64,000 bases of DNA from Phycisphaerae bacterium (GCA_963675745.2 CAXXWX010000026.1:768001-832000), one strand, 5' to 3'. Shown: positions 8,272 through 27,705, counted from the stretch's first letter. Made by a program: numbers and translations. Notes: a model not told the origin generated them from the sequence alone.

Positions 8272-8279
8272 GAAACGCC

Positions 8280-9173
8280 GTGCTCGAGTTCTTTCAGGCC
8301 GTTCGTGAGTTTTCGTTCTTACAGGTTGCCCTGCTGGCCGGTGTGCTGGCCAGCGTGGCGTGTGGCGTGGTCGGCAGCTACGTGGTTGTCCGGCGGATCT
8401 CGTTTGTCGCCGGCGGCATCGCGCACTGCGTGCTGGGGGGCATGGGCGCGGCCCGCTATCTGGCGGTCGTCCATGGCTGGGAGATGTACGAGCCGTTTCG
8501 CGGCTGGCAACCCTTGCACCCGCTTTACGGCGCTATTACCGCCGCCCTGCTCGCCGCCGTGATCATCGGCCTGGTGAGCATGCGCGGCGGACAACGCGAA
8601 GACACGGTGATCGGCGCCCTGTGGGCCATCGGCATGGCGACCGGCGTGCTCTTCATCGCCCGCACGCCGGGATACCAGGAAGAGTTGATGAGCTACCTGT
8701 TCGGCAACATTCTGATGGTCGCCCAGCAGGATTTGTGGCTGCTCGCGCTGCTGGACATCGTGATCGTCGGGGTTGGTCTGCTCTTCTATAACCAGCTTCA
8801 GGCCGTGTGCTTTGACGAGGAGTTCGCCCGACTGCGCGGGCTGCGCGTCGAGTTGTACTACATCCTGCTACTGTGTCTCACCGCCCTGACCGTCGTGCTG
8901 CTGATCAGCGTGGTGGGCATTGTCATGGTCATCGCGCTGCTTACGTTGCCGGTGGCGGTCGCCGGCTACTTCTGCCGTACGCTCTGGCAGCTCATGCTCG
9001 TGTCGTCATTGCTGAGCATGGTGTTCACGTCGGCGGGATTGGCGTTGAGCTATGGTCCCGATCTGCCCGCGGGGGCCACAACAATCGTCCTCGCCGGCGC
9101 GGTTTACGTGCTGGTGCTGATCGGCTCACGCGTGGCCCGGTCCTGGACAGCGCGCGTCCAGCGCCATGCGTAA
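8280..9173 (+). CDS. znuB: Zn/Mn ABC transporter permease
   Basis: Hydrophobic; GIAH, SYLFGNIL, FDEEFA and LP.GATIV motifs of ABC-3 permeases. Confidence 0.9.
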   Translation: MLEFFQAVREFSFLQVALLAGVLASVACGVVGSYVVVRRISFVAGGIAHCVLGGMGAARYLAVVHGWEMYEPFRGWQPLHPLYGAITAALLAAVIIGLVSMRGGQREDTVIGALWAIGMATGVLFIARTPGYQEELMSYLFGNILMVAQQDLWLLALLDIVIVGVGLLFYNQLQAVCFDEEFARLRGLRVELYYILLLCLTALTVVLLISVVGIVMVIALLTLPVAVAGYFCRTLWQLMLVSSLLSMVFTSAGLALSYGPDLPAGATTIVLAGAVYVLVLIGSRVARSWTARVQRHA

Positions 9174-9210
9174 CCTCGTGCATACACGTCAAAGCACCTA
9201 CAATCCGCGC

Positions 9211-10329
9211 ATGCATCATAGACGCACGATTCCACTGATCCTCCTGGTCGCGGTCGCGGTCGGCGGCTGCGACCGTCCCCCGCAAAAGCCGCAAACGCAC
9301 AACGGCCCCGTAACGGCCGACCAAAGCCCTGTAACGGCCGGCGCCCCGCCGGCCGCCGATGGTGCGCCACGCTGCGACACGCCAACACCCACCGGACACA
9401 CCGTCAAGCGCGCGCGCGAAGTCATGGGCACCTTCGCCGAGGTGACGGCGATCGCCCCGGACAAGGCGACCGCCGCTTCGGCCGTCGAGATCGCCTATCA
9501 GCGCATCGACGACGTCAACCGGTTGATGAGCGACTACGTTGACGACAGCGAGATCGGCCGGCTAAACCGCCTCGGCGCGGGCGAAGCGCTGGTAGTCTCG
9601 CCCGAGACTTTTCGATGTTTGCAGCGCGCGGCGGAGATCGCGGAGGCCAGCGGCGGGGCGTTTGACGCCACCTGCCGCCCACTGGTGCGGCTCTGGCGCC
9701 GCGCAGGCAAGGTACAACAGCTACCTTCAGCCGAGGACATCCGCGCCACGCTGCGGAAGGTCGGCTGGCAAAAAGTCAGGCTCGATCCAGCCACGCGCCG
9801 CGTGACCCTTGCTACCGAGGGGATGCAATTGGACGTCGGCGGCATCGCCAAGGGCTACGCCCTCGACCTGGCCGCCGAGGCGATGCTCTCCGCCGGCGCA
9901 ACCGGCGTACTGGTCAACATTGGCGGCGATTTGCGCGCGCTGGGCGGTCAGCCAGGAGATACGCCGTGGCGCATCGGCGTCAAGCACCCCTTCCAGACCG
10001 GGTTGTTCGGCAAGCTGGCCTTGAAGGACGGCGCCGTGGCCACGTCGGGGGTGCAACAGAGGTTCGTCGAGATTGACGGGCAACGCTACTCGCACGTGAT
10101 TGACCCGCGCACCGGGCAGCCGGCGGCCGAAGCCCCCAGCGTAACGGTCATCGCTCCTGACGGGATCACCGCCGATGCCTGGGCGACGGCGTTTAGCGTT
10201 CTGCCGGTGGCTGAGGCCCGTGAACTGGCTCAGCGCCTCGATGGTATTGAAGTGATGTGGATCTCAGGCACGGCCGCCGCGCCGATCGTCACACAGACAA
10301 GCGGTTTTGCCGCCTACGTCATCGAGTAG
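9211..10329 (+). CDS. apbE: FAD:protein FMN transferase (lipoprotein)
   Basis: Lipobox VGGC; MGT, SEI.RLN, GAFD.T, LDVGGIAKGYA.D, NIGGD, ATSG, YSHVIDPRTG and ADAWATA motifs. TACAAT lies 6 nt before the ATG. Confidence 0.92.
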   Translation: MHHRRTIPLILLVAVAVGGCDRPPQKPQTHNGPVTADQSPVTAGAPPAADGAPRCDTPTPTGHTVKRAREVMGTFAEVTAIAPDKATAASAVEIAYQRIDDVNRLMSDYVDDSEIGRLNRLGAGEALVVSPETFRCLQRAAEIAEASGGAFDATCRPLVRLWRRAGKVQQLPSAEDIRATLRKVGWQKVRLDPATRRVTLATEGMQLDVGGIAKGYALDLAAEAMLSAGATGVLVNIGGDLRALGGQPGDTPWRIGVKHPFQTGLFGKLALKDGAVATSGVQQRFVEIDGQRYSHVIDPRTGQPAAEAPSVTVIAPDGITADAWATAFSVLPVAEARELAQRLDGIEVMWISGTAAAPIVTQTSGFAAYVIE

Positions 10330-10362
10330 CGTCCGCCGCTACTTGAGATGTAGCGCCACTCG

Positions 10363-12156
10363 TCATGCGTAGCTGTGTACGCTGGCGATATAGAAATTCA
10401 CGAAGAACCAGTTGAAGGCCATCATCACACAGCCGGCGATCGAAAGCCATGCGGTCCACAAGCCTCGGTTGCGCACGACGAAGCGCACGTGCAGCAGAAT
10501 CGCGTACACGAGCCACGTGTTCAGCGCGAAGACTTCCTTTGGATCCCAGCCCCAGGGCCGACCCCACGAGTAGTCGGCCCACCACGCGCCCAGGATAATC
10601 CCGCCGACGAAGAGCAACAGAAAGACCATGTTGAGGATGATCAGATGCGCCCAGTCAAAATCGTTGAGCCACTGAGGCAGTGACTGGTCAGCTTCATCGC
10701 CCGGCGTGGCACCCGCCAGAATCGGACGCTGCTGCACAAACCCCAGCCCCATGCCGAGCCCGCTGCCGTCGTCGAGCCCCGTCCCCGCCTGTCGCTGAAA
10801 CTTGCGCCCGAGCATCACCGCGTAATACCCGATCAGGTAGATCACGGCGATGACGGCCGCCAGGTAGACCAGCGCGTAGGCCGCGATAATCATGACCGTG
10901 TGCAGCCGCAGTTGAATGTCGTCGAGAATGGCCGGGATGGTCCCGAGTTCGGCGCCGGGCAGCACGAAGCTGCCCATGACCAGGCCGAGAAAACCGGTTG
11001 CCGCCGCGGCGACCAGCAGGATGCGTGTCCGCTGGAAGATCTCGATCAAAAGGGCCACCGCGATGCCCATCCACGCCGACGCGACGACCGCCTCGAACAT
11101 GTTCGCGACGGGAATGCGCCCCAGAATGCTCCAGCGCAGCCCCACTCCATAGGCGTGGATCGACAGTGCGACGAGCATCAGCGCAAACGCCGTGCCCCAC
11201 GCCCAACGCCAGCGTGTTACCAGCGCGGGCAGCGCAAACAGCAGCGCCAGAAAGTACACCAGCCACCCCCAGGTGAATTTGCCGAACGAGTAGTACCGCG
11301 CCTCGGCCGCGCGTTGAGCGACGGACGGATACACTCCCGGCCCGGCCAACGTGGGCAGGAAAGCCGCCAGGCGATCCAGGTATTTTTGCGTGCCTGCCGC
11401 ATCACCGCCCAGCCAGGCCTTCTTGAGCAGTTTCCAGTCAACGGTTATGCGCAGCGCGTCGTCGGCGCTGAACTCCGGCATCGGGCTCATCGCGTGCGGC
11501 GAGATGGTGGCCCGCGTCAACCCGAGCTGCGCCATCTGTTCAAGCGTCAGATTGCCTTCGACCTGACCGGCGGTCCCCCACGGCGCGACGTCGTCACCGC
11601 CGGGCTGGGGCACGAAAGTCAGGAATTGGTCGAGACGCTGGGCGATGGCCTGGGCGCCGCGCACGCGGTTCAGCGCGCTGCGCATGATGTTGTGCGTCTC
11701 CATTTCGCGAATCTGCGCATTGAGACGCTCGTCATCGAATTCGCGGGGTGTGAAGTGGCGGCTTTCGAGCAGCTCCGCGCGCCGCTCGGCATCAAGGTGC
11801 CCCGCCAGCCGCATGCGCACGGCTTTCTCGCGGACCTTGATCAGCGGCTCGTCGGCATATGCGTCGCGGTTGAACTCCCATTCGAGCAGAGACGCCACCG
11901 GGCTCAGGCCGGGCAGATGCTCGCGCCCGGTCATCGCGGCGAACGACTCGCGCGCGAACGAATCCAGCGTCTTGTAGCGCCCGCGATCCTGCACCGCGAT
12001 CAAGCTCGCCGCCGACCAGTCGATCTGGTCGTCCAGGGCGGCCGCCCGGCCTGACGGTTCGAGCGGCTCGCTCTTGCCACACGAGACCAGCGGGAGCACC
12101 ACCAGCAATATCCCCAGCCGTGCAAAACGGGTTGTGAATGATGTCCGCGCTATCAC
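10363..12156 (-). CDS. ccsA: Cytochrome c synthase CcsA/ResC (System II) with a large N-terminal periplasmic domain
   Basis: WWD motif WADYSWGRPWGWDPKE, P.ANMFE, His in LRLH, LLHVR and C-terminal HSYA. GTG start overlaps the upstream stop (GTGA). N-terminal LVSC is lipobox-like. Confidence 0.9.
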   Translation of the reverse strand: MIARTSFTTRFARLGILLVVLPLVSCGKSEPLEPSGRAAALDDQIDWSAASLIAVQDRGRYKTLDSFARESFAAMTGREHLPGLSPVASLLEWEFNRDAYADEPLIKVREKAVRMRLAGHLDAERRAELLESRHFTPREFDDERLNAQIREMETHNIMRSALNRVRGAQAIAQRLDQFLTFVPQPGGDDVAPWGTAGQVEGNLTLEQMAQLGLTRATISPHAMSPMPEFSADDALRITVDWKLLKKAWLGGDAAGTQKYLDRLAAFLPTLAGPGVYPSVAQRAAEARYYSFGKFTWGWLVYFLALLFALPALVTRWRWAWGTAFALMLVALSIHAYGVGLRWSILGRIPVANMFEAVVASAWMGIAVALLIEIFQRTRILLVAAAATGFLGLVMGSFVLPGAELGTIPAILDDIQLRLHTVMIIAAYALVYLAAVIAVIYLIGYYAVMLGRKFQRQAGTGLDDGSGLGMGLGFVQQRPILAGATPGDEADQSLPQWLNDFDWAHLIILNMVFLLLFVGGIILGAWWADYSWGRPWGWDPKEVFALNTWLVYAILLHVRFVVRNRGLWTAWLSIAGCVMMAFNWFFVNFYIASVHSYA

Positions 12157-13841
12157 TTCGCAATACCTCGTGATTTCATGCGTCGTAGCATTACCGGCTT
12201 GACATAGAATGCATACAGGCAACCGATCGTGATCAGCACCCACCCGACGCTCATCGGCCAGATGCCCCGCCGGTTACCAACGCCCAGGACCGTGTAACTC
12301 CACCCGTCCTGCGCTGCTCCGCTCTGGTAGAGTGTCCAGCCACCAATCGTGCTGGTCTCGTTTGTGTAGGTCGTATCCGGCCGCGGTGTCGCATCCGGCC
12401 CCTCGGCCACGAGAAAGTCGCTGCGGTAGGACTCAACGCCGCGCATCCCCGGGAAATACGTCACGCTCAGCTTGATCGGTGCGAGTGTGAAGCCCAGGTC
12501 GTGTCGCTGGCGGGAATAGACCAGGCGCCACGGGGCGTCCTCTCCGGGAACATCGACGGTCAGCGCCTGCACATTCACGTCCGTGTAGTGGCTGAAGGGC
12601 AGCCAATGCGTCCGTGTCCAGTCGGCGTGGTCACCACGGCCGGTGAGCTTCAGGCGGATTGCCGAGAGAGCCCGCGCGCTGATGCTCGGCATGCGTCTTT
12701 CGATCGGCTCGATGATCGGCTCACGCTCGATCATGCCATCGGGCCCCACGACCGGCTCGCCGGAGCCATCGACGCGCGCGCCCATCTCGGCGATATACGG
12801 AACATAGCCGGTAATCTGCACGTCGAAGGGCAACCCCGCCGAGTCGACGTTGATCGGCATGCGCCAGCGTTCGAACCACCCCGTCGGGATGGTCAATCCC
12901 ATCAGGCTGAGCGCCGGCGAGCTGCGTTTGGAAGGCACGGGTTCACCACGCGTGTCGCGCAGCACAACCCCCTCGTCGGTGTAGCGCTCGCGGTGAATGG
13001 GCAGGCCGATGATCGGCTTGATGTGTTCGCCGCTGTCGCCGACTTTGCTGACATAGAGCGTGACCTCTTCGCGGTCAAAGAACTGGTCTTTGGTCGAGAA
13101 GGTCAACAGGCCGAGCTCGGCGCCGTTGGCCAGGCGTTGCCACGGCTGCCCATCAGTGAGCGTGACATCGCTGGGGGGATTCTGGCCGATGTGAACGCGG
13201 ACGCGCGCGGTCGCGACGGGAGTGAGTCCGTCGCCCTGGGTGTCCAGCACGGTAACGTGCATCGCGCCGCCCAGCCCCGGAAGAAACCGCGCCCACTCGT
13301 TGCCCGTCTCCGCCAGCAACTGCCCCACGTTCGTGGCTTTTCCGCGCGCCTGGGCACGAATGATAATCTGGGGCGAACGCAGCATCACGTCGCCTTCCAC
13401 CTTTGAGCCGAAGTACCAGCCGGCGCCGAGGATCAGCAGGATCATGCCGATGTGCGTCAGCAACCCGCCGGCATTGACCGCCTTCCAGCGCGAACGGTAA
13501 AACGTGACCAGCAGCATCGATATCAACAGCAGCGCGGATAGCAGTGCGAACAGCCAGTGTCTGAACGCCTGCATCTCGGTGACTTCGACCGCGCCACGCA
13601 CCTGGGGCAGCGCCGACATGATCGACGCGTACGCCAATACAAGAAACAGCAGCGCGATTCCGAACCAGAAGCTCGTGAACAGCCGAATGATTGGGTTGCG
13701 TATGCGTTGCGCGCGAGAGCGCGAGTCGCCGCTTACCGACTCTGATCGCGCGACCGGCTCCACCTCGGGCGGTTTCACCGGCGCGGTGCTCTGACCGGCG
13801 TCGCGCGCCTGTGTTAATTGCTCATGACCGATTGTGCCCAT
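12153..13841 (-). CDS. ccsB: ResB/CcsB-like cytochrome c biogenesis protein
   Basis: Three N-terminal TM helices with LLTHIG (TM histidine), a long periplasmic domain, SYRSD, WTLYQS and a C-terminal TM. Translationally coupled to ccsA; GGAG RBS. Confidence 0.8.
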   Translation of the reverse strand: MGTIGHEQLTQARDAGQSTAPVKPPEVEPVARSESVSGDSRSRAQRIRNPIIRLFTSFWFGIALLFLVLAYASIMSALPQVRGAVEVTEMQAFRHWLFALLSALLLISMLLVTFYRSRWKAVNAGGLLTHIGMILLILGAGWYFGSKVEGDVMLRSPQIIIRAQARGKATNVGQLLAETGNEWARFLPGLGGAMHVTVLDTQGDGLTPVATARVRVHIGQNPPSDVTLTDGQPWQRLANGAELGLLTFSTKDQFFDREEVTLYVSKVGDSGEHIKPIIGLPIHRERYTDEGVVLRDTRGEPVPSKRSSPALSLMGLTIPTGWFERWRMPINVDSAGLPFDVQITGYVPYIAEMGARVDGSGEPVVGPDGMIEREPIIEPIERRMPSISARALSAIRLKLTGRGDHADWTRTHWLPFSHYTDVNVQALTVDVPGEDAPWRLVYSRQRHDLGFTLAPIKLSVTYFPGMRGVESYRSDFLVAEGPDATPRPDTTYTNETSTIGGWTLYQSGAAQDGWSYTVLGVGNRRGIWPMSVGWVLITIGCLYAFYVKPVMLRRMKSRGIAK

Positions 13842-14023
13842 ATGTGCTCCACGCGCCCCGCTTGCGGCCCTGGAATACTCACAATTGCGCCACTATAGCG
13901 GAATGCGCCGTGTGTGACAGCCTCAGACCGGCACTCGGACCGGCCGGGCAATCAGGCCCAGATGTAATCAGGGGATTATACGTGCATCCGGCCGGCCGGC
14001 GCGCCGTCCACGCGCGCCGGTAC

Positions 14024-14070
14024 CAAACAAAGCGGGCCGGCCCGGAGCAATGATGACTTCCGGGCCGGCC
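14024..14070 (-). terminator. Intrinsic terminator after the octaheme cytochrome gene
   Basis: 12-bp stem GGCCGGCCCGGA/TCCGGGCCGGCC followed on the minus strand by CGCTTTGTTTG. Confidence 0.65.
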
Positions 14071-14103
14071 GTTGCTTATTCCACAGGTACTCGCCGTCGA
14101 CGG

Positions 14104-15714
14104 CTAACCGCCAAACGGATCGCCCTCGTATCCCAGGGCCTCAAAGAAGCCCGCCACGCCATGGCACTGCTCGCACTTAAGTGCGTCCGCGCCACTTACG
14201 ACCTCGTGGTTGATCGTCAGGTACGCAACGGTGTTTACGAAGCCATACGTGCCGCTGTAATCCTGGCCGGTGTATGCGGTGCCGTCCTGGATCGCCAGAT
14301 CCCAGTCGTACTTGACCCAATAGGGGTTTTCACCACCCTTGGTGCCGAACAGGTGCGGAACAACGACGCGCTGGTTAACAGTGTCAGCCGGCTGGTCCCC
14401 GATCATCTTCTTGAACGGGTATATCTTGGCGCCCTCGGTCTCGATGGTCGCCGTCGGCCGCGCCAGGACAACCGGGTCCGCGACGGTGCCGGCCTCGGTG
14501 TAAGTGTCGCTGACGCCGACGATCATGCGCTCCCACTTGCCGTCATACCACATGTATGTGGGTCGAACGCTCTTGGCCCAGACAAAGCTCCCCTTCTTCT
14601 TGTCGTAGGTCGCCTTGCCGTAGTCGTCGGTGGGAATCGGGTCGAGATCCTGACCGGCCTCTGACCAGTACCACTCAACCTTGGTCGGCATGCTGCGCGC
14701 GAACGTTGGGATGTGGCAGGTCTGGCACGCTACCGTCGCGCCATGGAAGTTCAGAACCGACGAAAGCAGGGCCGAGGCCGAGTGCGCCGCTTCTCCGTGA
14801 CAGCGGATACATGACGCGTCGCCTCCTCCTTCGGTAACCGAGTGCAGCGGCATGCCGGCGATGCCGTGATTCTCAGTGACGTGGCACTGCTGGCAGGCGA
14901 AGTTCATGCCCTCGGCAGCCATGTGCACGTCCATCGCCTCGGTGGGATCAGTCAGGTCGGAAGACAGGTCGCCATGTTTGACGTTGTCGCCGCCACCGGC
15001 GTAGAAATGGCAACTGCCGCAGTTCTGGCGCTGCGGGGCACCGACGTTGTAGGCCACGTCCTGCAACGCATCGGCCCCGACAACCGTCAGCTCGCCGTCA
15101 ATCATCAGCGCCGGCGGCCCACCGCCACCATCGGCCGTCGGATGCTTCTTGTACGTGTCCGTGGTATCGTGGCACACTAGGCAGTCGACGTTGTCAACGC
15201 TCGCGAAATCGAACGTATCGTCCTTCCAACCATAGCCGGGGTGGCACGCCGTGCAGCGGCCCTCGTTGGAGGGGACCGCGATGCAGAAGTTGTTGATCAG
15301 GTCGGCCTTGCCGTGCACCTCGCCTTCGACGCCGATGATGTTGGCCACCTCGCCCTGCCAGTTCCAGTGTCCGGTCTGGATCAGATCGCGGGCCGAGGCG
15401 GAGTGGCACACCAGGCAACTTTCGCCCACCCCCTGAAAGCCGTCGGGTATGATCTCAGTGAAGATCAACTCGTGTTTTGATTTGGCCGTGCCGTCGGTTC
15501 CATCCGTACCATCGGTGCCGTCTGTGCCGTCGGTACCATCCGTGCCGTCGGTGCCGTCGGTGCCGTCGCCCGGACCCACGTCATTTGGATCGGTGACATC
15601 CCCATCGCCGCCGTCCGTGGGGATACCGTCAATAGCCGGGCAACCGGCGAGATTCGCTGTCACCGCCACACCGAGCGCGGCCAGCATGACAAAACGCGCC
15701 ATCCGTGCTGACAT
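14104..15714 (-). CDS. Octaheme c-type cytochrome, tetrathionate reductase (OTR) family, lipoprotein
   Basis: 8 CxxCH (CLVCH, CTACH, CLVCH, CGSCH, CQQCH, CIRCH, CQTCH, CEQCH); HWNW, GK...INNFCI, GGGDNVKHGDL, DVHM, CQTCHIP and KIYPFK motifs; lipobox LAGC; AGGAG RBS. Confidence 0.88.
   Translation of the reverse strand: MSARMARFVMLAALGVAVTANLAGCPAIDGIPTDGGDGDVTDPNDVGPGDGTDGTDGTDGTDGTDGTDGTDGTDGTAKSKHELIFTEIIPDGFQGVGESCLVCHSASARDLIQTGHWNWQGEVANIIGVEGEVHGKADLINNFCIAVPSNEGRCTACHPGYGWKDDTFDFASVDNVDCLVCHDTTDTYKKHPTADGGGGPPALMIDGELTVVGADALQDVAYNVGAPQRQNCGSCHFYAGGGDNVKHGDLSSDLTDPTEAMDVHMAAEGMNFACQQCHVTENHGIAGMPLHSVTEGGGDASCIRCHGEAAHSASALLSSVLNFHGATVACQTCHIPTFARSMPTKVEWYWSEAGQDLDPIPTDDYGKATYDKKKGSFVWAKSVRPTYMWYDGKWERMIVGVSDTYTEAGTVADPVVLARPTATIETEGAKIYPFKKMIGDQPADTVNQRVVVPHLFGTKGGENPYWVKYDWDLAIQDGTAYTGQDYSGTYGFVNTVAYLTINHEVVSGADALKCEQCHGVAGFFEALGYEGDPFGG
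15487..15567 (-). repeat. Coding 9-nt tandem repeat x9 encoding (Asp-Gly-Thr)9
   Basis: Nine units such as ggtgccgtc/cgtaccatc that vary only at synonymous positions. Confidence 0.9.
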
Positions 15715-15857
15715 TGTCTGTGCTCTCCTGCATAGAGACGGGCGACGGCAGATCCCGCGCACCCGGTTGACCAATGATCCCAAACCACACGACGTCGCGA
15801 CGGCTCGCACCCCCGTGAGAAATTCATGTTGCGCCGCGAAATACACGACCTTTCGAT

Positions 15858-15929
15858 CGGGTATTATCCCCTACCGGCGCGCTTCAGACAATCCCCCCAC
15901 CGGGTAGTTTCTTCCCCTTTAAAGGGGAT
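15858..15929. promoter_or_regulatory. Putative LuxR/NarL-family operator array upstream of the octaheme gene
   Basis: Perfect palindrome TCCCCTTTAAAGGGGA (15913..15928), ATCCCC half-sites at 15866 and 15891, and CGGGTA at 15858 and 15901. Confidence 0.5.
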
Positions 15930-15953
15930 GGAAACCACGGCCTGAATGATGGA

Positions 15954-16601
15954 CTATGCGGGATGATTGCGGGCGGCATAGCTTACCGCTTCGGCCCGCG
16001 AGTTTAGCTGGAGCTTGCGATAGACGCCCTTGAGATGCGAACGCACCGTAGACGGAGAAATGCCCAGTTCCTCACCGATCTCATCGTTGCCCAGCCCGCG
16101 TCCCACCAGACGCAGCACTCGCATTTCCTGCTGCGTAAGGTTCGCCACCGGCTCGGCACGCATCTGCCCGGCCGTCAATGTCAGCAGCCGGTTTGCAACC
16201 TCCTCGGACAACTCGACTTGCACCGCTCGTTCCGCGGTCACATCGCAAAAGAGCAGCGCGCGACCGACCTCGTCGCCATGCCGATCGACGTAGCGCGTCG
16301 CGTTTACTTTCAGCGACAGGTTTTCCGGCCATGTTACTCCGACGTCGGCGAGCACGTTCCCGTTGGTCGCCGCGCTGTCTTGCCAGAACGCCAGAAGCTG
16401 CAAGTCTCGCAGCAGGCCACCCAATTGCCGGCCGAGTGCGTCGGCGGCGCTGGTGCCAAGCACGCGCTCGGCAGCGCGGTTCAGCCAGATGACCCGCTCA
16501 CGGGGATCTGTCAGCACCAACCCAACGCACAAGCCCGAGAGAGCCTGTGTGACGATGCAGTCTTGCAGGCAGTCCTTGTAGTCTTGTTCCAAACGGTGCA
16601 T
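15954..16601 (-). CDS. PAS-domain LuxR-family transcriptional regulator
   Basis: PAS pattern (LTD..ERVIWLN.AAE.VLG) and C-terminal HTH LTQQEMRVL.LV..GLGN.EI..ELGIS.STVRSHL..VYRKL...SR.EAV. Confidence 0.88.
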   Translation of the reverse strand: MHRLEQDYKDCLQDCIVTQALSGLCVGLVLTDPRERVIWLNRAAERVLGTSAADALGRQLGGLLRDLQLLAFWQDSAATNGNVLADVGVTWPENLSLKVNATRYVDRHGDEVGRALLFCDVTAERAVQVELSEEVANRLLTLTAGQMRAEPVANLTQQEMRVLRLVGRGLGNDEIGEELGISPSTVRSHLKGVYRKLQLNSRAEAVSYAARNHPA

Positions 16602-16897
16602 TCGCTACTCCAGGGCACTGCCCCCGGCGGCCGCCAGCCCGCAGCCGGTTCGGCACACCAGGAATGTCCACGACCCGGCATTTCACATTCTAGCCCGATC
16701 AGGTGTCTCGGCACAGACATCAGTCGACGAGCCGCCTGTCAGCAGCGCGGCCCATGCGGAATAGGGCACATGCGAATTGCAATCACGCCGCGCGTCCCTA
16801 GAATGCGGCGAGCTTGGCCGAATGCGGCACCGATCATCAAACGCACACCACCAATACCGGTGGCAACGCCGATAAGAGTAACTGCGCGAGCCCACTC

Positions 16898-19840: not shown

Positions 19841-21765
19841 ATCGTCACCGGCTGCGTCATCCTGGAGTGTGTGTTATGCGTGTAAACCGGCGCGAACGCG
19901 CCGCCATCGGCAGACTGCTGCCCCAAGCTGCACTGGTGGTGGCACTCTTGCTCGGATCTGCGGCCGTCACCGCGTGGGCGGACGATCCGGACAACTGCCT
20001 GCTCTGCCATCAGTATCGCGGGCTGGGGCGTTACATCCCCGAGAGTGACGCAGTCCACCTGTATTTCACCAGTCCCGACTACCAACACCTGCGTCTCGGG
20101 GCTCACGCGCGCATCGCCTGCACCGACTGCCACGAACGCTCCGAAGTTAACGTGATCCCGCACAAACCGGTGTCACGCGTCGATTGCACGCGGCAGTGTC
20201 ATTTGCACAACATGAGCGGCGTGGCGCGGCGGTACACGCATGCCAACGTCGCCGACGCGCTCCAGCAGAGCATCCACAGCTTTGACACGCTCGCGCAACT
20301 GGAGTTCACCGACGGCCCGCTATTGGGCGCGGGGCAGTCCTATTGTCTGTATTGCCACGACGAACCCCTGTACCGCGACCCGGTCGAGCTGATTCCAACG
20401 CTCGAATATGTCGGCGAACACGTATATCGCCGCTGCTACGGGTGCCACGCCGATCAGGTGCCGACCGACACCGACTTCTACTTGCGTCACGTAACCTCGC
20501 GGTTGCAAAACGCTCGGCCGCCGCTCGAGATGGCCCAGGCCTGCGCGGTGTGCCACAGCGACAAGAAAGTCCGCGAGAAGTACGGGCTTCAGGATGGCGT
20601 GGTCCGCTATGCCAGCACGTACCACGGCAAGGCGGCGCTGCTCGGCTCGCACGATACGGCGAACTGCATCAACTGCCACGCCCGCGAGAGCGAGGACACA
20701 CACCTGATTCGTTCGCAGTACGACGAAGCATCGATCAGCCATCCCGACCACAAGGCCGACTCCTGCCGCTCGGTCAATTGTCATCCGGGCGCCGATCGCA
20801 GCATCGGGCGCGCAGCCGTCCACTTGGACGTGCCGACGCTGACCGGCATAGAGATCGGCCTGGTGATCGCTTTCATCATCTTCACCATGCTGACCTTCGG
20901 CCCGTCGCTGGTGCTCACGCTGCTCGAGCTGTTTCAGGTGGTGATCGGACGCCACGTGGCGGACGAGGAACCCATGCGCCGCCTGACGCTCTCGGTGCTG
21001 CGTCATCCCGAAGGTCGCCGGCGTCTGCGGCGCTTCACACCCAGCCAACGCTGGCAACACTGGCTGCTGGCGCTGCTCTTCGCCCTTTTGGTGATTACCG
21101 GCTTCCCGATGAAGTTTGCCGCCGAGCCGTGGGCGCGGCACGTAATCGACACCATCGGCGGGTTGGCCGTGGCGCGGCACATCCACCACTACTCCGGCGT
21201 GGCCCTGGTCGTCGGGTTCGGCCTGCACTTGCTGACCGCGATTGTGCGCATGCTCGCCGCCGCGCTGCGTGCCGGTTCCGACGGCAAGCGCCAGGGGTTG
21301 ATCAAGGCGTTGATCACGATGCCGATGTTTGTCGGCCCCAAGGATCTCATCAAGGGCGGGCAGCTAATGGCCTACCTGCTCTTCCTGCGCAAGAAGCCGC
21401 CGTCGTTCGGGCGCTTCAGCCTCGACCAGAAGTTTGAATATCTCGGGGTGTTCTGGGGCACGATGCTGCTGGGAGTCACCGGCGCCCTGCTCTGGGACAC
21501 GCAGATCAGTTCGCGATTCGTGAGCGGAAACGTGTTTAACCTGGCGCTGATCGCGCACACGTACGAGGCGTTTTTGGCGGTAATTCACGTGGGCATCCTG
21601 CACATCTGTAACGTGGTCTTCGCGCCGCAGGTCTTCCCGTTCTCGCCCGCGACGCTCACTGGGCAGACGCCCATCACGCGTCTGGCCGAGGTTCACGCCG
21701 ATCTGGTCGTCGATGTGGCCCAAGATCTTGGCATCGAGATCCCGAAGGAGGTGTCCCATGCCTGA
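19837..21765 (+). CDS. Multiheme cytochrome c / cytochrome b fusion (CbcL-like paralog, 8 heme-c motifs)
   Basis: CLLCH, CTDCH, CTRQCH, CLYCH, CYGCH, CAVCH, CINCH and CRSVNCH; QHW, IHH, QKFEYLG, AHTYEA...LH. GTGA overlap with the previous gene. Confidence 0.85.
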   Translation: MNRHRLRHPGVCVMRVNRRERAAIGRLLPQAALVVALLLGSAAVTAWADDPDNCLLCHQYRGLGRYIPESDAVHLYFTSPDYQHLRLGAHARIACTDCHERSEVNVIPHKPVSRVDCTRQCHLHNMSGVARRYTHANVADALQQSIHSFDTLAQLEFTDGPLLGAGQSYCLYCHDEPLYRDPVELIPTLEYVGEHVYRRCYGCHADQVPTDTDFYLRHVTSRLQNARPPLEMAQACAVCHSDKKVREKYGLQDGVVRYASTYHGKAALLGSHDTANCINCHARESEDTHLIRSQYDEASISHPDHKADSCRSVNCHPGADRSIGRAAVHLDVPTLTGIEIGLVIAFIIFTMLTFGPSLVLTLLELFQVVIGRHVADEEPMRRLTLSVLRHPEGRRRLRRFTPSQRWQHWLLALLFALLVITGFPMKFAAEPWARHVIDTIGGLAVARHIHHYSGVALVVGFGLHLLTAIVRMLAAALRAGSDGKRQGLIKALITMPMFVGPKDLIKGGQLMAYLLFLRKKPPSFGRFSLDQKFEYLGVFWGTMLLGVTGALLWDTQISSRFVSGNVFNLALIAHTYEAFLAVIHVGILHICNVVFAPQVFPFSPATLTGQTPITRLAEVHADLVVDVAQDLGIEIPKEVSHA

Positions 21766-22939
21766 TCCCACCGCCCCGCGGGATGATCCCTGGCCGGATG
21801 TCGATCCAGAGCTCGCCGCCGAGCATGAGCAGCGGCGGCACGAACAGCAGAAGCACGACGTTGGTCTGTTACGCCGCGTCTACGCACTGTTGCCGATCAT
21901 CGGGGTGCTATATCTGAGTTACCGGGCGATTGCCTATCTGATCGTGGCACTGCTGGTCGAGGAATACGCGCCGCCGAAGCAGTTCACGCAGATCCCGGCC
22001 CGGCTGACGGCCGAGGTATGGCGTACGGCACCCGACCGCTGGCTGGGTAGCGCGCTGGCCGAGAGCCCGCGTGCCCCGCTTTCGCACTATCACCAGATCG
22101 ACGGCTGGTTCCAGCCGGACGCTGTCAACGACTGCACGCGCGCCGGCTGTCACAGTCTGATGCCACACAGTCGGCACAAGGAAGTCCGCGCCTTTCTCAA
22201 CATGCACGCCACCAGCCTGCACTGCGCCGTGTGCCACCTCGACACACCCGCCAAGCCGCTTCCGTTGGTTTGGTACAACCTGAAGGCCGGCGCGATGACC
22301 GACCCGCCCGCGCTATTGCAGGCCTATGGCTGGCTCGAATCCGACGCCGGCGCACAACTGCTGAGCACCCCGACGGCCGACGGCCAGAAACATCTTGTCC
22401 GACTTCTCGAGCAAGCCGCCGCCCAGGCCGGCGACGATCCGTCGCTTACGCGCATGGCGCAGCTCGTGGCCGGCCCGCGCTACACCAGCCGGCAATTCCT
22501 CACCACGGTCGCCAACGTGCGCGCCAGGCTGCCATCGTTTTTCCGCGGCGAGTATGGCGCGAAACTGACGCTGCGCGACCAGGCCACCGGTCGGCCAATA
22601 CACGGCCACCCAGGCGTGGAGAAGCTTGTGCGCGAGTTCATCGCGCGCGGCGATCAGCTTAATGAGCAGGCGCGCGATGACCTGCTCGGCCGCCTCCACC
22701 CGGCCCGCCGATCCGTCACGCTGCAATGTACCGATTGCCATCGTCAGGAGGGTGGCCTGGTCGATCTCGCCGTGGCCGGCTATCCGCCGCAGCGCATCGC
22801 CACTCTGCAACAAGGTTGGATATTCCGTGCCATCGATCACATCATGGAGGGCAATCCCCTGAATCTGCCCGGTTTTCTGGCGTCGCAGAGTAAGGATTCT
22901 CCAGTTCCGCCATCACCGGAGCCACCCGAGGAGCCGTAG
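21758..22939 (+). CDS. Membrane-anchored triheme cytochrome c, homologous to the C-terminal domain of 16898..19840
   Basis: One TM; CTRAGCH, CAVCH and CTDCH. Shares PL.H(Y/F)HQ, EVRAFLNMHAT, RGEY.AK and GYP..R motifs. GGAGG RBS before ATG 21758. Confidence 0.82.
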   Translation: MPDPTAPRDDPWPDVDPELAAEHEQRRHEQQKHDVGLLRRVYALLPIIGVLYLSYRAIAYLIVALLVEEYAPPKQFTQIPARLTAEVWRTAPDRWLGSALAESPRAPLSHYHQIDGWFQPDAVNDCTRAGCHSLMPHSRHKEVRAFLNMHATSLHCAVCHLDTPAKPLPLVWYNLKAGAMTDPPALLQAYGWLESDAGAQLLSTPTADGQKHLVRLLEQAAAQAGDDPSLTRMAQLVAGPRYTSRQFLTTVANVRARLPSFFRGEYGAKLTLRDQATGRPIHGHPGVEKLVREFIARGDQLNEQARDDLLGRLHPARRSVTLQCTDCHRQEGGLVDLAVAGYPPQRIATLQQGWIFRAIDHIMEGNPLNLPGFLASQSKDSPVPPSPEPPEEP

Positions 22940-25900
22940 TGCCCGTCCACCGCCAGAGCTGCGTAGCGCGCGGAGCTTGCTTGCCCGCCGCCGCCCGGAC
23001 GTCCGGGGCTTCTGCTCCCGGCGGAGTGCTGCTGCGCTTCGCCGCCCTGGCAACTCTCGTGATGCTCGCGCCGGCCGGCGTGGCCCTTGGCGATCAGCCC
23101 TGGCCGCTGATCGGCAAGCCAATCCTCACATTCGAAACTCCGCCGGATGACGCACTCTTCATGCCCACCGCCGTAACGATCGCCCCCGACGGCTCGGTCT
23201 ACGTGGTTGATGGCGTAAACGACCGCGTCGTGCATTTCGACGCCCAGGGCCGGCCGCTCGAGCGCATCAGCGCGGTTGGCACCGCCCAACTCAGCAGCCC
23301 GGTTGGCGCACGTGTGGATGCACAGGGACGGCTTTGGATCGCCGACACCGGAAACCACCGTGTACTTGTCCGAAACCCGGATGGTGCATTGGAGCGCGAG
23401 ATCGTGGTTCCGGCGGCGGTGCTGAAAGAACCTCCCGATTTGACCGATCTGGCCATCAGCCCGGACGGCAAAACGGTGTTCCTGGTCGACAACGACCATC
23501 ACCGGATCATCAGTTATGACCTGGCTGACTCGCGAGTGAGCACGTTCGGCACGCTGGGCGAATCTCTCGGGGAGTTTCACTACCCATTCACCATCGCGCT
23601 CGCACCAGACGGCGAGTTGCTGGTGACCGACGTCATCAACGGGCGCATCCAGCGACTCACCCGTGACGGAGTGCCGACCGGGACCGTCGGCGGATATGGC
23701 GTGGATTACGGCCAGCTTTACCGCCCCAAAAGCACCGCGCTCGACGCCGAGCAGGTCGTGTGGATATCCGATGGGACGCTGGACGTTATCCAGGCGTTCA
23801 GATCAGACGGCCGCCTGGTAGACGTGCTGCGCACTGAGGACGGCGAGCCGCTGCGTCTGGATTCGCCGATGGGGCTCGCGTTTGATCCGGACGGCTATTT
23901 GTACGCTGTTGAGCTGGGCGCCGGCCGCGTGCGGAAGTTCGAGATCCTCCGAGATGCCAGCGCCCCCCCGCCGGTCGTCGTGACCCGCCGCGGCACATCA
24001 ACCATCGGCCCCCAGGCGCGTGGCTGCACAATCTGTCACTTCGAATGGGTGCGGCCGCTGGTGAACGGGCAATCCACGCCACTGGCAGACGTACCGCCGA
24101 ACCCACCCGAGCACCCGTGGGTCAGCCGCGCCGAACAATGCCTGAGCTGCCATGACGGCTCTGTCGGCGACGCGCGCCGCCGCGTCTGGGTCGAGCACGG
24201 ACACCGCGTCGGCATCGAGCCCCCCGACAGCATAACGATCCCCGCAGACATGCCGCTGGCCAACGGGAAGCTCGCCTGCCGCACGTGCCATTCGGCCCAC
24301 AGCTCATCGGAGGAACGAACCACGATCGAGGGAATCGTCTTTCTACGCACCGACGAATCGCCCGCCGAATTGTGCAGCAAGTGCCATACGAGTTTCACGG
24401 GAGACGTTTCGGCCGGCATGCACCCGCTGGTCAAGATGCCATTCGAATTGCCCGCGGACCTGGTACACATCGATAGCCCGGAGACACGTTCGCAAATAAC
24501 GTGCCTCGGCTGCCACACGGGCCACGGCGGCGTCCATGATGACCTGCTCGTGCTCAATCCGAACTCCAACGATCTATGCCTGGCCTGCCATCAGAAGCTC
24601 ACGCCCGATCTCTTTGGCCCCGATGTCGTTGGTCGGCACGGACACGCCGTGCGGCTCACCGCCGAGCAGGTCGCGGTTGCTGGTGAGTTAGGCACGCGGC
24701 GTGGTCCTGGCGACGAGCTACTCTGCACGACGTGCCACGTTTCACATAACGCACCAACCGAACACAACCTCCTCGCATTTGATCTCGCCCAGCGCGACGC
24801 ATGCGCCGAATGTCACGTCGAGCAGAATGGTGTGATCGACTCGCCGCACGACATGCGAACCAGCGAACCCGGTGCGGTGGAAGTCGCCGGCGCGCGCGTT
24901 GAATCTTCCGGCGCCTGCGCCGGCTGCCACACCGCCCATCACGCGGGTATCGAGCCGAATCCCACGATCGACGACCCGCGCGGCCTCTGCATGAACTGCC
25001 ACGCCGCCGGGCGCATGGCTGGTGACAGCACACTCGGCCCCCACAATCACCCTGAAAGCGTGTGTACCGATTGCCACGACCCCCACGCCACCGGGTTTGG
25101 GAACTTCCTCACGGCGCGCCCCAGTGAGCGCTGCATCGAGTGCCACGCCGACTATGCCGGCGTGGTCAGCGGTCCCCATGATGTGTCCAACCGCGCGCCC
25201 GCCTGGCCAGCGAGTTCGGTGCAGGCCGGCGACACCTGCCTGGCCTGTCATCGACCGCACGGTGACGCGGCGCAGGGCATGTTCCGCGCCGGGCTGGCCG
25301 AGGATAAGTCGGGTGTGGACGCCGCCTGTCTCGCCTGTCACGCGGCCGCCACGCCGGGCCACGCCAGCGGCATCGCGCTGCTGCACCCGCGTGAAGTCCG
25401 CGCCCTGCACAGCACGCGCGAATTGCCATTCGCCACAGGAAATGACGGCAAGCCACGCGTCGCCTGCAACACCTGTCATGATCCGCATCGCGCTGACGCC
25501 GACACGTCCCTCCTGCGCGTGCGTGACGACCAGACCCTTGAAGACATGTGCCTCACGTGCCATGCCGAACGCGTCAACGTCCACATGATCGGTCATGCGG
25601 AGGATTCGATGCGCCGCGCCGGCTTCGCGGTCGGCGGGTGCCAGCCCTGCCACCTGACGCATGGCGAGCACGACCAGGTCGAGCCGCACATCATGTGGCC
25701 CAAGGCCCTGTCGCAGTTCGAAGGGGCCGAGAACACGCCAATCGCCGACCACTATTGCGTCTCGTGTCACCGCACGGGCGGGCCGGTGGCCCCGCCGGCG
25801 ATCGCTTCACATCCGGAAGTGGAGATGTTCAACCCCGAGCAGCCAGACTCCCCGGGCTTTCTGCCGTTGTTCAACGAGAACGGCGAGGTCGACCCGGCTG

Positions 25901-26130
25901 GCCACATCTCCTGTCGCACGTGCCACCTGACGCATGGACGCAGTGAGCCGGCCCCGCTCGCCCAGTCACTTGCGGACACGGCCGATCGTGAACGCCGCGC
26001 TCGTGCGTGGCACGTCCGTACGCTGGGACCGGCCAATGTCTGCACGACGTGTCATGGTTTTGACGCGCTGCGCCGTTTCATGTATTTCCATGATGCGACT
26101 CGACGGGGCGGGCCGATCGAGAGCCGCTGA
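22939..26130 (+). CDS. NHL-repeat beta-propeller fused to a 20-heme doubled-CXXCH cytochrome c
   Basis: Signal-like N-terminus; ~6 NHL repeats (P.AV.IAPDG.VYV.D..N.RV etc.); 20 CxxCH, 18 of them in 9 CxxCHxxH...CxxCH pairs. Confidence 0.85.
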   Translation: MPVHRQSCVARGACLPAAARTSGASAPGGVLLRFAALATLVMLAPAGVALGDQPWPLIGKPILTFETPPDDALFMPTAVTIAPDGSVYVVDGVNDRVVHFDAQGRPLERISAVGTAQLSSPVGARVDAQGRLWIADTGNHRVLVRNPDGALEREIVVPAAVLKEPPDLTDLAISPDGKTVFLVDNDHHRIISYDLADSRVSTFGTLGESLGEFHYPFTIALAPDGELLVTDVINGRIQRLTRDGVPTGTVGGYGVDYGQLYRPKSTALDAEQVVWISDGTLDVIQAFRSDGRLVDVLRTEDGEPLRLDSPMGLAFDPDGYLYAVELGAGRVRKFEILRDASAPPPVVVTRRGTSTIGPQARGCTICHFEWVRPLVNGQSTPLADVPPNPPEHPWVSRAEQCLSCHDGSVGDARRRVWVEHGHRVGIEPPDSITIPADMPLANGKLACRTCHSAHSSSEERTTIEGIVFLRTDESPAELCSKCHTSFTGDVSAGMHPLVKMPFELPADLVHIDSPETRSQITCLGCHTGHGGVHDDLLVLNPNSNDLCLACHQKLTPDLFGPDVVGRHGHAVRLTAEQVAVAGELGTRRGPGDELLCTTCHVSHNAPTEHNLLAFDLAQRDACAECHVEQNGVIDSPHDMRTSEPGAVEVAGARVESSGACAGCHTAHHAGIEPNPTIDDPRGLCMNCHAAGRMAGDSTLGPHNHPESVCTDCHDPHATGFGNFLTARPSERCIECHADYAGVVSGPHDVSNRAPAWPASSVQAGDTCLACHRPHGDAAQGMFRAGLAEDKSGVDAACLACHAAATPGHASGIALLHPREVRALHSTRELPFATGNDGKPRVACNTCHDPHRADADTSLLRVRDDQTLEDMCLTCHAERVNVHMIGHAEDSMRRAGFAVGGCQPCHLTHGEHDQVEPHIMWPKALSQFEGAENTPIADHYCVSCHRTGGPVAPPAIASHPEVEMFNPEQPDSPGFLPLFNENGEVDPAGHISCRTCHLTHGRSEPAPLAQSLADTADRERRARAWHVRTLGPANVCTTCHGFDALRRFMYFHDATRRGGPIESR

Positions 26131-26231
26131 AACACGCCCCGGCCACTGCGGGCTCATGGATTCGGCTGTGTTCCCCGCTACAATCTTCAGAAATCGAGAC
26201 AATCCCGCCGAAGCAACGGAGAGCCAGACGA

Positions 26232-26993
26232 ATGCCGTCAAACAACCGCATGCCATTACTTCTTTGCCTGATCGTCGCTGGAGTTGTCGCATTCACAGGG
26301 TGCGACAAGGGTTCGCGCGAGGCGGCGCAGCCGGCCGCATCTTCCGCGGCCGACGACCAGCCCAGCGCCGATGAACTGTCCGACGTCCGCGAACTGGTCC
26401 AGAAAGAGGCTACCGAACGGCGGTCAGCCGCGCCCGGCGCGATGGACGGCATCCCCGCGGGACATCCACCGATCGACCAGCAGACCACCCGGCAGCGGCC
26501 GCCGCGACCGGCCGAGGCGACCGGCATCAAGTACGTCGCCCCGGAGTCATGGACCAAGGAAACGCCGGCTTCCTCGATGCGCGCCGATCAATACAGCTTG
26601 CCACGCGCCGAAGGTGACGAGGAAGACGGTGAGCTGGCGATCTTCAAATTCGCGGCCGGATCAGGCGGCGCCATCGACGCCAATATCTCCCGCTGGCGCA
26701 AGCAGTTCTCCACCGCCGACGGCCAACCATTGCCGGATGACAAAGCGCTCCCCACGAAGACCGAGGTTAACGGCCTCGAGGTCACCTTGATCGACATCGA
26801 CGGACGCTACCAGGCAACCAGCATGATGTTCGGCGGTGCGCCGCCCGCCGCCAAGGACAATTACCGCATGCTCGGCGCGCTGGTTGATACTCCCGTCGGA
26901 TTGTGGGTCTTCAAAGCAGTCGGTCCCGCCGCCACGATGGCCAAACATGAAGAGAGTTTCAGCCAGTTCGTGCAGTCAGTGGAAACCGAGTAA
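26232..26993 (+). CDS. Conserved hypothetical lipoprotein
   Basis: Lipobox FTGC; IPAGHPPI motif; C-terminal domain P.SW...MR..QY, GG.IDANISRWRKQF and W.FKAVGP. TACAAT upstream at about 26179. Confidence 0.75.
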   Translation: MPSNNRMPLLLCLIVAGVVAFTGCDKGSREAAQPAASSAADDQPSADELSDVRELVQKEATERRSAAPGAMDGIPAGHPPIDQQTTRQRPPRPAEATGIKYVAPESWTKETPASSMRADQYSLPRAEGDEEDGELAIFKFAAGSGGAIDANISRWRKQFSTADGQPLPDDKALPTKTEVNGLEVTLIDIDGRYQATSMMFGGAPPAAKDNYRMLGALVDTPVGLWVFKAVGPAATMAKHEESFSQFVQSVETE

Positions 26994-27024
26994 CGCCGGT
27001 GTGTCAGTGAGGCCCAGCGCACCG

Positions 27025-27705
27025 ATGCCGGTCGTCGCAGGTGCCATCTGGATGGTGGCGGCCGTGCTGTGCAGCGGCTGCGCCCAGGTTAACGTCGATC
27101 TAAACGCCTACCTGGCGCGTGACGCATCATTCCCCGAGCCCGAGCGCGGTCAGACCATCGGCGTCGTCGTGGCATCGTCGCGCAACAACGCGCTGCTGGA
27201 GGATGAGGTCGCCGCAAAGGTCACGCGACTACTCGAGCAACAGGGCTATACCGTTGCCGTTGATAAAGAGCCGGACTATGTCCTGACCTGCGAGTTTGCG
27301 GTTGATTCCGGCCGCACCGTGGTCCGGACCGTCCGCCACGACGAGCCCCCCACCGTCTATCGTTCGTACTACCACGGCCCCGGTCGCATCTGTCGCGTGC
27401 GCACGACAACCCTGCCGGGCCGCACGCGTTATTTCACGCAGCGCCGCACCATCTACACACGTAGTCTGCACCTATCGCTGATCCGCGTTAGTGCCGCGCG
27501 TACCGACTCCGGCGAAACGCTCAGCGGGACCACCCTCTGGCAGTGTGACGCTCACAGCCCCGGTCAAAGCGCCGACCTGCGCTGGGTGATCAATCACCTG
27601 TTGCTCGCCGCGTTCGACCACTTCGGCGTCGATACGGGGCGGCGGGTGCATCTCACGCTGCCGTGGGAGGGAGAGCGCGTCATGAACCTGGCGGCCGGTG
27701 ATTGA
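27025..27705 (+). CDS. Hypothetical lipoprotein (DUF4136-like); start uncertain
   Basis: Lipobox CSGC; helix ...LEQQGY, PDYVL..EF.V, then R.LHL.LI...LWQ pattern. Confidence 0.55.
   Translation: MPVVAGAIWMVAAVLCSGCAQVNVDLNAYLARDASFPEPERGQTIGVVVASSRNNALLEDEVAAKVTRLLEQQGYTVAVDKEPDYVLTCEFAVDSGRTVVRTVRHDEPPTVYRSYYHGPGRICRVRTTTLPGRTRYFTQRRTIYTRSLHLSLIRVSAARTDSGETLSGTTLWQCDAHSPGQSADLRWVINHLLLAAFDHFGVDTGRRVHLTLPWEGERVMNLAAGD

Follow-up and report, generated by a model that had tools for sequence, protein, structure and literature searches.

In the available portions of the published descriptions, CbcL of Geobacter sulfurreducens (GSU0274) joins nine c-hemes to a six-helix diheme cytochrome b domain and reduces the periplasmic cytochrome PpcA (PMC9129911), and the CbcL/MtoC/MtrH family is reported with 3 to 23 hemes (PMC6295460). 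NHL propellers encoded together with large multiheme cytochromes are described, as far as the accessible text of these reports goes, for Desulfovibrio ferrophilus (DFE_0451 and DFE_0463; PMC9769857) and, within a multiheme cluster, for 'Ca. Tenderia electrophaga' (UetH and UetI; bioRxiv 10.1101/2022.05.06.490989), both clusters having been proposed to serve extracellular electron exchange. Here, we analyze a multiheme cytochrome locus from Phycisphaerae bacterium GCA_963675745.2 that brings together elements resembling both. It lies in CAXXWX010000026.1:768001-832000; this whole stretch of 64,000 nucleotides (nt) is referred to as the window, and all positions are given in its coordinates.

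The locus encodes an OTR-family octaheme cytochrome c (hereafter OTR) and four further multiheme cytochromes, named cyt1 to cyt4. The unit conserved among relatives is cyt2, cyt3 and cyt4, which together carry 31 c-hemes, and is smaller than the locus as originally drawn. We consider it fairly probable that this core encodes a CbcL-like inner-membrane quinol:cytochrome c oxidoreductase, which would connect the menaquinone pool to a periplasmic 20-heme hub. Compared with the quinone gate of CbcL type, the new elements are an unnamed triheme subunit and a 20-heme partner fused to a propeller. The initial annotation of this DNA had counted 50 heme-c motifs in the five genes (8, 11, 8, 3 and 20 in OTR, cyt1, cyt2, cyt3 and cyt4, respectively), a number that we reproduced exactly: 44 are CxxCH and six are Cx3CH or Cx4CH. 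All motifs of OTR and cyt4 are CxxCH (8 and 20), while cyt1 possesses 8 CxxCH, one Cx3CH and two Cx4CH, cyt2 has 6 CxxCH, one Cx3CH and one Cx4CH, and cyt3 has 2 CxxCH and one Cx4CH. Since none of the atypical motifs varies among 20 diverse homologues of cyt2 or among 29 sequences of cyt3 or of the equivalent tail, these six are very probably real heme sites.

The cytochrome b domains that had been assigned to two of the genes were recovered in cyt1 and cyt2, which match PF01292 (Ni_hydr_CYTB) with 45.6 and 51.0 bits, respectively, above the cut-off of 30.1; formate-dehydrogenase gamma models also match both proteins below their cut-offs, and the matches of the membrane domain to TIGR01583 and TIGR02125 are sub-threshold. 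In both proteins, eight c-heme motifs precede the first membrane helix; comparison of cyt2 with 20 diverse homologues showed no variation in any of the eight or in four membrane histidines (H408, H450, H574 and H589). The match above the PF01292 cut-off and the four invariant histidines liken this domain to the FdnI and HydC subunits of formate dehydrogenase-N and Ni/Fe hydrogenase; unlike in those complexes, the redox partners are covalently attached c-heme domains, and no gene for a molybdopterin, Fe-S or hydrogenase subunit was found among the profile matches of the neighborhood. A sequence search of the PDB with cyt2 returned only matches with E > 0.1, including FdnI (1KQF_C, 0.13), and no experimental structure of a CbcL-type complex.

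The cyt1 protein shares 42% identity with cyt2 over its residues 28-662 and 33% with cyt3 over residues 669-1001. We read it as an older paralogue in which cyt2 and cyt3 are fused in a single chain, with 11 heme-c motifs and a predicted diheme cytochrome b. In its hydropathy profile, a signal or anchor precedes the periplasmic octaheme domain; a single helix and then the helices of the cytochrome b come next, and a final one, at about residues 679-697, leads into the triheme tail. The peaks fit an arrangement periplasm, one transmembrane helix, cytoplasm, four helices, cytoplasm, one helix, periplasm; one of the four b-domain helices falls below the hydropathy threshold and was assumed from the FdnI match. 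About five helices are counted in cyt2 and about six in cyt1, the sixth helix of the split pair being the single helix of cyt3. Because cyt1 fuses both proteins in one chain, we infer that cyt2 and cyt3 assemble into a complex that spans the membrane with six helices and exposes both c domains to the periplasm. Within the order, fused proteins of about 950-1060 amino acids (aa) are found repeatedly. A quick tree, whose 41 rows comprise the two window proteins, 20 split and 3 fused forms of the compared loci and 16 family representatives, places the fused forms in a clade of 9 rows and the split forms in one of 24 rows (SH-like approximate likelihood ratio test, 99 and 95), with one 954-aa protein falling inside the split clade. 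At E ≤ 1e-3 the wider family of c+b proteins comprises 1918 representative clusters, of which 161 remain at E ≤ 1e-30; the cluster of one representative with 29% identity has a member named from a Deltaproteobacteria metagenome-assembled genome (MAG). The natural pair of split and fused forms offers a ready test of subunit association in CbcL-type complexes.

In cyt3, a single transmembrane helix precedes a periplasmic triheme domain (Cx4CH and two CxxCH), which contains a helical insert. No family was found for it in Pfam or NCBIfam, the best matches being a c7 motif (E 0.003) and a short OTR-like stretch (E 1.5e-4). At E ≤ 0.001 it has 143 homologues and, among the matches listed (120 of the 143), all are unnamed or 'hypothetical' proteins of Phycisphaerae or Planctomycetota MAGs. 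The AlphaFold2 model has an overall predicted local distance difference test (pLDDT) value of 77.9, with 87-98 over residues 170-380, and Foldseek retrieved no PDB match for it at E ≤ 1e-3. VIA-align was also tried for the fold, and its best result (Z 7.8) was a generic four-helix bundle over residues 198-278, within the noise for helical models, and was discarded. We found neither a name, nor a Pfam model, nor a solved relative for this protein family.

The cyt4 protein starts with an export signal and a six-bladed NHL beta-propeller, followed by its 20 CxxCH motifs. In 40 homologues, all 20 motifs and 18 further histidines are invariant, and one more histidine is nearly so; about one invariant extra histidine per heme fits bis-His electron-transfer hemes and not a catalytic site. 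The protein could thus act as a periplasmic or secreted heme wire. A catalytic role for the propeller was also considered and judged unlikely, the invariant residues being those of the six NHL blade motifs, with no conserved His/Cys metal cluster apparent. In the D. ferrophilus and Tenderia clusters, according to the portions of the reports available, the propeller forms a protein of its own, next to an outer-membrane barrel in the case of Tenderia, whereas in cyt4 it is fused N-terminal to the 20-heme chain, which is encoded behind an inner-membrane module in a locus devoid of a barrel gene. The role of the D. ferrophilus system is also unproven, since the deletion of neighboring cytochrome genes did not stop the reduction of Fe(III) oxide, as stated in the accessible text (PMC9769857).

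The genes cyt1 to cyt4, all on the plus strand, are translationally coupled. The TGA of cyt1 overlaps the GTG of cyt2 by 4 nt (an alternative cyt2 ATG at 19876 would leave a gap of 35 nt), the stop of cyt2 overlaps by 8 nt the cyt3 ATG at 21758, which is preceded by AAGGAGG, and the TAG of cyt3 overlaps by 1 nt the GTG of cyt4, preceded by GAGGAG. These overlaps and Shine-Dalgarno motifs bear out the probable operon that had been proposed from the stop/start junctions. No plus-strand sigma-54 site was found upstream of cyt1 (positions 16602-16813, up to three mismatches allowed), and the 116 sigma-54 matches across the window lie below the mean of 130 obtained after shuffling. Scans for sigma-70 sites and terminators gave counts at chance level; three promoter-like sites sit upstream of cyt1, OTR and ccsB. 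In the spacer between the LuxR gene and cyt1, the search for inverted repeats returned a single 12-nt pair with 83% complementarity and nothing convincing.

Conservation was examined in 28 fetched loci, 27 of which are distinct (L026 is on the same contig as L017): 13 come from genomes of the same family or order, around cyt2 matches, and 15 from named MAG contigs, for which the single-protein scan reached close relatives only, with no Geobacter locus among them. All named relatives are MAGs of Phycisphaerae or Planctomycetota, in agreement with the probable Phycisphaerae origin first suggested for this DNA; the isolate name of one of them (L035) bears the OFTM prefix, which is used for MAGs of a tunnel-biofilm study in the part of it available. 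The cyt2 and cyt3 genes are adjacent in 26 of the 27 loci, the contig ending in the remaining one, and a full-length cyt4 homologue follows cyt3 in 20, with two contigs ending early. The gene order of the core, which the initial annotation had proposed to look for in relatives, is maintained in 20 of 27 loci from several families. Other genes of the locus are found less often: the lipoprotein follows in 8 of the 27 loci, OTR is within the flanks of 8 and the PAS-LuxR gene is present in 6. In a search at E ≤ 1e-10, 118 of the 251 genomes examined from the order of this bacterium had cyt3, including 54 of the 71 that belong to its family, and 300 other genomes drawn from the phylum gave no match.

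How closely this core resembles CbcL can be judged from the published descriptions, of which parts were available (PMC6295460, PMC9129911), and these support the CbcL-type architecture initially assigned, in which an N-terminal multiheme c domain precedes the cytochrome b. Both cyt2 and GSU0274 possess an N-terminal periplasmic multiheme c domain and then a diheme b domain of HydC/FdnI type; in both the c-hemes are probably all bis-His, and the protein is placed between the quinone pool and periplasmic multiheme cytochromes. Differences are found in the extra triheme domain, with which the sixth helix comes here, either as a separate protein (cyt3) or as a C-terminal fusion (cyt1), and in the partner, which is an NHL-propeller 20-heme protein here and a PpcA-type triheme protein for CbcL as described in the same sources. 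Two Planctomycetes homologues listed in a 2018 survey (664 and 709 aa, 11 hemes and 6 helices; PMC6295460, supplement file 2) have an architecture different from that of cyt1 and cyt2.

Several observations weigh against the assignment of the core as a CbcL-like quinol oxidase. The likeness to GSU0274 is drawn from architecture and published descriptions, not from a sequence alignment, and cyt2 has eight c-hemes, two of them Cx3CH/Cx4CH, and about five helices, compared with the nine CxxCH and six helices given for CbcL in the available descriptions. The cyt4 gene is not in the flanks of five of the 27 loci, which have 5-8 kb of downstream sequence. Among the products of 9166-27705, profile searches revealed no outer-membrane barrel, and PF11854 (MtrB/PioB) has no match in the genome, which is 91% complete. 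As many as 90 of the 118 genomes with cyt3 have no OTR match that could serve as the acceptor. The direction of electron flow is not fixed by the sequence, and the CbcL family has members in Fe(II) oxidizers too (MtoC and MtrH). No RNA sequencing run is listed as containing positions 16700-26200, only three runs of DNA or unknown type from one study. As family members vary from 3 to 23 hemes in the accessible text, the mismatch in hemes and helices excludes orthology in form yet is compatible with family membership. The locus contains no barrel gene of the kind that defines porin-cytochrome conduits (MtrCAB, Pcc).

The loci without cyt4 lend some substance to another view, namely that cyt2/cyt3, cyt4 and OTR are neighbors in a variable cytochrome island that share no common pathway, each acting with other partners. 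The content of the island does vary, cyt4 being on the opposite strand in two loci and relatives carrying extra NapC/NirT-type, MtrC/MtrF-like and NHL cytochromes in or beside the module. For example, cyt3 and cyt4 are separated by an opposite-strand gene for a NapC/NirT-type multiheme protein (611-638 aa) at L021:11413-13329 and L036:12019-13854, and six further loci have a gap of the same size between these two genes; this protein would represent a second kind of quinol dehydrogenase within the island. However, the stop-start overlaps joining cyt1, cyt2, cyt3 and cyt4 and the gene order kept across several families make a mere island very improbable.

OTR matches TIGR04315 (tetrathionate reductase family octaheme cytochrome c) with 489.5 bits (cut-off 375) and the Shewanella oneidensis enzyme (PDB 1SP3) over its full length (E 3.8e-114). 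As in that protein, it has eight CxxCH motifs, and its K180 and C188 align with K56 and C64 of 1SP3, K56 being what we take to be the ligand of the active-site heme. It differs from the 1SP3 protein in being a lipoprotein with a long (GTD)n linker, encoded behind a PAS-LuxR gene and beside a quinol-dehydrogenase-like operon. Because it has a LAGC lipobox, with the (GTD)n repeats linking the lipid anchor to the enzyme, OTR would be a tethered and not a free periplasmic enzyme. The PAS-LuxR gene precedes OTR in tandem and is oriented away from the cytochrome operon. This LuxR-OTR arrangement is repeated in L017, L018, L021 and L027, and L024 has two successive pairs, suggesting that the regulator and OTR travel as a unit; in L024 (G025:C14:88135-108134) the two pairs are beside cyt2-cyt3.

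OTR was also surveyed (E ≤ 1e-60) in the 251 genomes of the order used for cyt3. It is present in 42 of them, 28 of which also have cyt3. In 16 of these 28, no more than about 13 kb separates the two genes on a shared contig; the remaining 12, many of them fragmented assemblies, have them on different contigs. OTR is thus an accessory of the module, often linked to it and probably acting as a terminal reductase, and the 90 cyt3 genomes lacking an OTR match indicate that it is not the obligate end of the chain. The chain ending in OTR or an external acceptor, as initially annotated, was therefore retained as regards the linkage and not as regards OTR being its necessary end. One could still imagine that the quinol dehydrogenase and cyt4 exist to feed OTR for the reduction of tetrathionate, nitrite or hydroxylamine. 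Linkage within about 13 kb in 16 of 28 genomes is far above chance for genomes of 4-5 Mb, the gene for the PAS-LuxR regulator separates OTR from the operon, and OTR retains the lysine matching K56 of 1SP3, which we presume to be a heme ligand. We nevertheless find a dedicated OTR chain unlikely, in view of the many cyt3 genomes without OTR and of the 14 of 42 OTR genomes without a cyt3 match; furthermore, OTR is on its own strand with its own promoter-like site (a weak consensus match), and a relay of 31 hemes would far exceed the need of one periplasmic enzyme.

The locus had also been described as self-contained, and the rest of the genome does not support this. A six-frame scan (stop-to-stop open reading frames, ORFs, of at least 100 aa) revealed 22 ORFs with at least three CxxCH motifs, and at least five multiheme clusters exist besides this one. 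An ORF of 1804 aa (L043, G000:C26:165465-170879), some 600 kb upstream on the contig of the window, encodes the largest cytochrome of the genome, with 47 heme-c motifs (46 CxxCH) and cytochrome c7/c3-type repeats. Another cluster (L044, G000:C3:22417-31575) encodes a 12-heme cytochrome, a free NHL propeller of 381 aa, and 4-heme, NHL-8-heme and 8-heme proteins, as well as a 791-aa protein with no Pfam match, a signal-like start and an alternating beta-strand-like sequence, which is a candidate outer-membrane barrel; this cluster may provide the outer-membrane route missing from the locus. The remaining ones include an NrfD-fused multiheme protein adjoining a 23-heme cytochrome (L042, G000:C6:156945-161632), a second OTR-like protein of 768 aa with 10 CxxCH (L045, G000:C1:68448-70754) and a 917-aa frame with 7 CxxCH and a sub-threshold cytochrome b match (27 bits) resembling a c+b fusion (L041, G000:C2:24071-26824). 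In addition, the genome encodes two oxygen reductases, a heme-copper oxidase and a cytochrome bd. Given these further clusters and oxygen reductases, the locus cannot be regarded as self-contained, nor the organism as purely fermentative.

The same oxygen reductases enter into a reading in which the complex runs in reverse, as a redox-loop quinone reductase: electrons from periplasmic or external donors, such as Fe(II), reduced humics, or thiosulfate or hydroxylamine via OTR, would pass through cyt4 and the c domains to menaquinone on the cytoplasmic side, conserving energy as in formate dehydrogenase-N, and could then be taken up by the heme-copper oxidase and cytochrome bd. The membrane domain is of the FdnI/HydC type, and such domains reduce quinone in their known complexes. 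On the other hand, OTR-family enzymes have been characterized as reductases, and the locus contains neither Cyc2 nor a porin-cytochrome gene. The CbcL/MtoC/MtrH family occurs in Fe(II) oxidizers as well as in Fe(III) reducers (PMC6295460, in the part available), whereas oxidative markers of extracellular electron transfer are rare in Phycisphaerae according to the accessible text of a lake survey (3 of 139 operational taxonomic units; bioRxiv 10.1101/2022.03.26.485925). The reverse redox loop was retained on account of the quinone reduction by FdnI-type domains and of the family members in Fe(II) oxidizers, but we give it a low probability and favor flow from quinol to cyt4.

In the preferred direction, quinol would be oxidized at the b domain of cyt2, and electrons would leave through the 8 + 3 c-hemes of cyt2 and cyt3 to cyt4. 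From there they could reach the lipoprotein OTR where it is present, under the control of the PAS-LuxR regulator, and other cytochromes too, such as those of the possible outer-membrane route encoded in another cluster of the genome; the lipoprotein of PsbP fold encoded downstream would be an accessory subunit. By analogy with Geobacter, we may speculate that the fused (cyt1) and split (cyt2/cyt3) copies serve different redox windows. The path initially proposed, from menaquinol through b/c modules and a 20-heme wire to OTR, is thus partly supported, by the architecture, coupling and synteny of its first parts; OTR as its obligate end and the self-containment are not supported.

A quinone-linked module of 31 c-hemes, found in roughly half of the genomes sampled from one order, suggests a respiratory ability outside the carbon-degrader picture of this class. 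Genome surveys portray Phycisphaerae chiefly as complex-carbon degraders capable of partial denitrification, and the class-wide analysis, in its accessible portion, does not contain the word 'multiheme' and mentions only HAO-like octahemes (PMC11266412). The lake survey (bioRxiv 10.1101/2022.03.26.485925) and the tunnel-biofilm study report, in the parts available, matches to hidden Markov models (HMMs) of CbcL or of the D. ferrophilus type ('DFE') in Phycisphaerae MAGs. The gene combination had been taken for one that is not a described system; as a unit, we found no description of this operon in the full-text literature, a coverage that leaves out most subscription journals, but the parts resembling CbcL and DFE have already been flagged in this class. 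The practical gain is in annotation, since HMM surveys, as far as the available texts go, tag these parts separately as 'CbcL' and 'DFE'. A more far-reaching idea, which we put forward only tentatively and regard as rather doubtful, is that an order-specific respiratory machine made of three parts (the CbcL-like b/c cytochrome, an obligate triheme subunit and the propeller-tipped 20-heme wire) would work as an energy-conserving redox loop exchanging electrons with minerals, humics or partner cells, its fused and split copies being redox-potential-specific gates like ImcH, CbcL and CbcBA of Geobacter. If so, the members of this order, uncultured Phycisphaerae supposed to be sugar degraders and widespread in wastewater, groundwater and sediment, would be electroactive.

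The genes of the locus and its immediate surroundings are listed in Table 1.

Table 1. Genes in and around the multiheme cytochrome locus (window coordinates)
Gene or product	Position	Strand	Remarks
apbE (flavin transferase lipoprotein)	9166-10329	+	PF02424 match
ccsA	10363-12243	-	PF01578 match
ccsB (ResB-like, 562 aa, upstream of ccsA)	12153-13841	-	
OTR-family octaheme cytochrome c	14104-15714	-	likely start 15714; longest ORF to 15846
PAS-LuxR (GerE) regulator	15954-16601	-	domain matches
cyt1 (fused c+b+triheme)	16814-19840	+	likely start ATG 16898
cyt2 (octaheme c + cytochrome b)	19837-21765	+	database protein starts at ATG 19876
cyt3 (membrane-anchored triheme)	21758-22939	+	longest ORF from 21713
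cyt4 (NHL propeller + 20 hemes)	22939-26130	+	
PsbP-fold lipoprotein	26232-26993	+	lipobox

The lipoprotein gene starts 101 nt past cyt4. Its product has, after the lipobox, a conserved LPxGHPPI motif and a C-terminal domain of PsbP/DcrB fold, and no sequence family was matched in the Pfam and NCBIfam profile searches. In the AlphaFold2 model (pLDDT 80.7), the C-terminal domain gave 28 PDB matches with Foldseek at E ≤ 1e-3, which place it in the PsbP/Mog1/DcrB fold; the matches include 3lyd (1.4e-6, the best), cyanobacterial PsbP (2xb3, 1.2e-5) and plant PsbP. DcrB (6e8a) scores 1.9e-2, and the Atlas feature lead (DcrB and PsbP, scores 0.87-0.89) agrees with them. Since proteins of this fold often serve as extrinsic or assembly subunits of membrane complexes, the modeled lipoprotein is likely an accessory or extrinsic subunit. 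The LPxGHPPI motif sits in the disordered linker, occurs twice in the homologues of L036 and L038 and could be a candidate metal- or heme-contact motif. A DUF4136-like lipoprotein gene (27022-27705) directly follows, the same pair being found in L014 only (1 of 27 loci).

The clustering with ccsB/ccsA, a PAS-LuxR regulator, a lipoprotein and apbE that had been noted at the outset stands as far as the presence of these genes is concerned (weakly for CcsB), but ccsBA and apbE are bystanders. CcsA matches PF01578 with 94.1 bits (cut-off 29.9) and TIGR03144 with 142 bits, below the cut-off of 187.6; the likeness of CcsB to ResB is weak in Pfam (E 0.27), and 30 of 30 Atlas feature matches carry ResB, with a top score of 0.96. 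This is the only PF01578 match of the genome at its 91% completeness, there are 22 multiheme ORFs to serve, and ccsBA adjoins the module clearly in one of the 27 loci and weakly in two more; ccsBA is therefore probably the general system II cytochrome c maturation machinery of the genome, a neighbor and not a dedicated part. Likewise, apbE is outside the cytochrome module and belongs to a metal ABC-transporter operon: it is the last gene of a tightly packed plus-strand unit with znuA, an ABC ATPase and an ABC-3 permease (6101-10329), its start overlapping the stop of the permease gene. It is uncommon for a metal-uptake operon to end in a gene for an ApbE flavin transferase. Finally, a gene for a UbiE/MenG-type methyltransferase of quinone biosynthesis is present 6 kb downstream of the locus (32582-33442).

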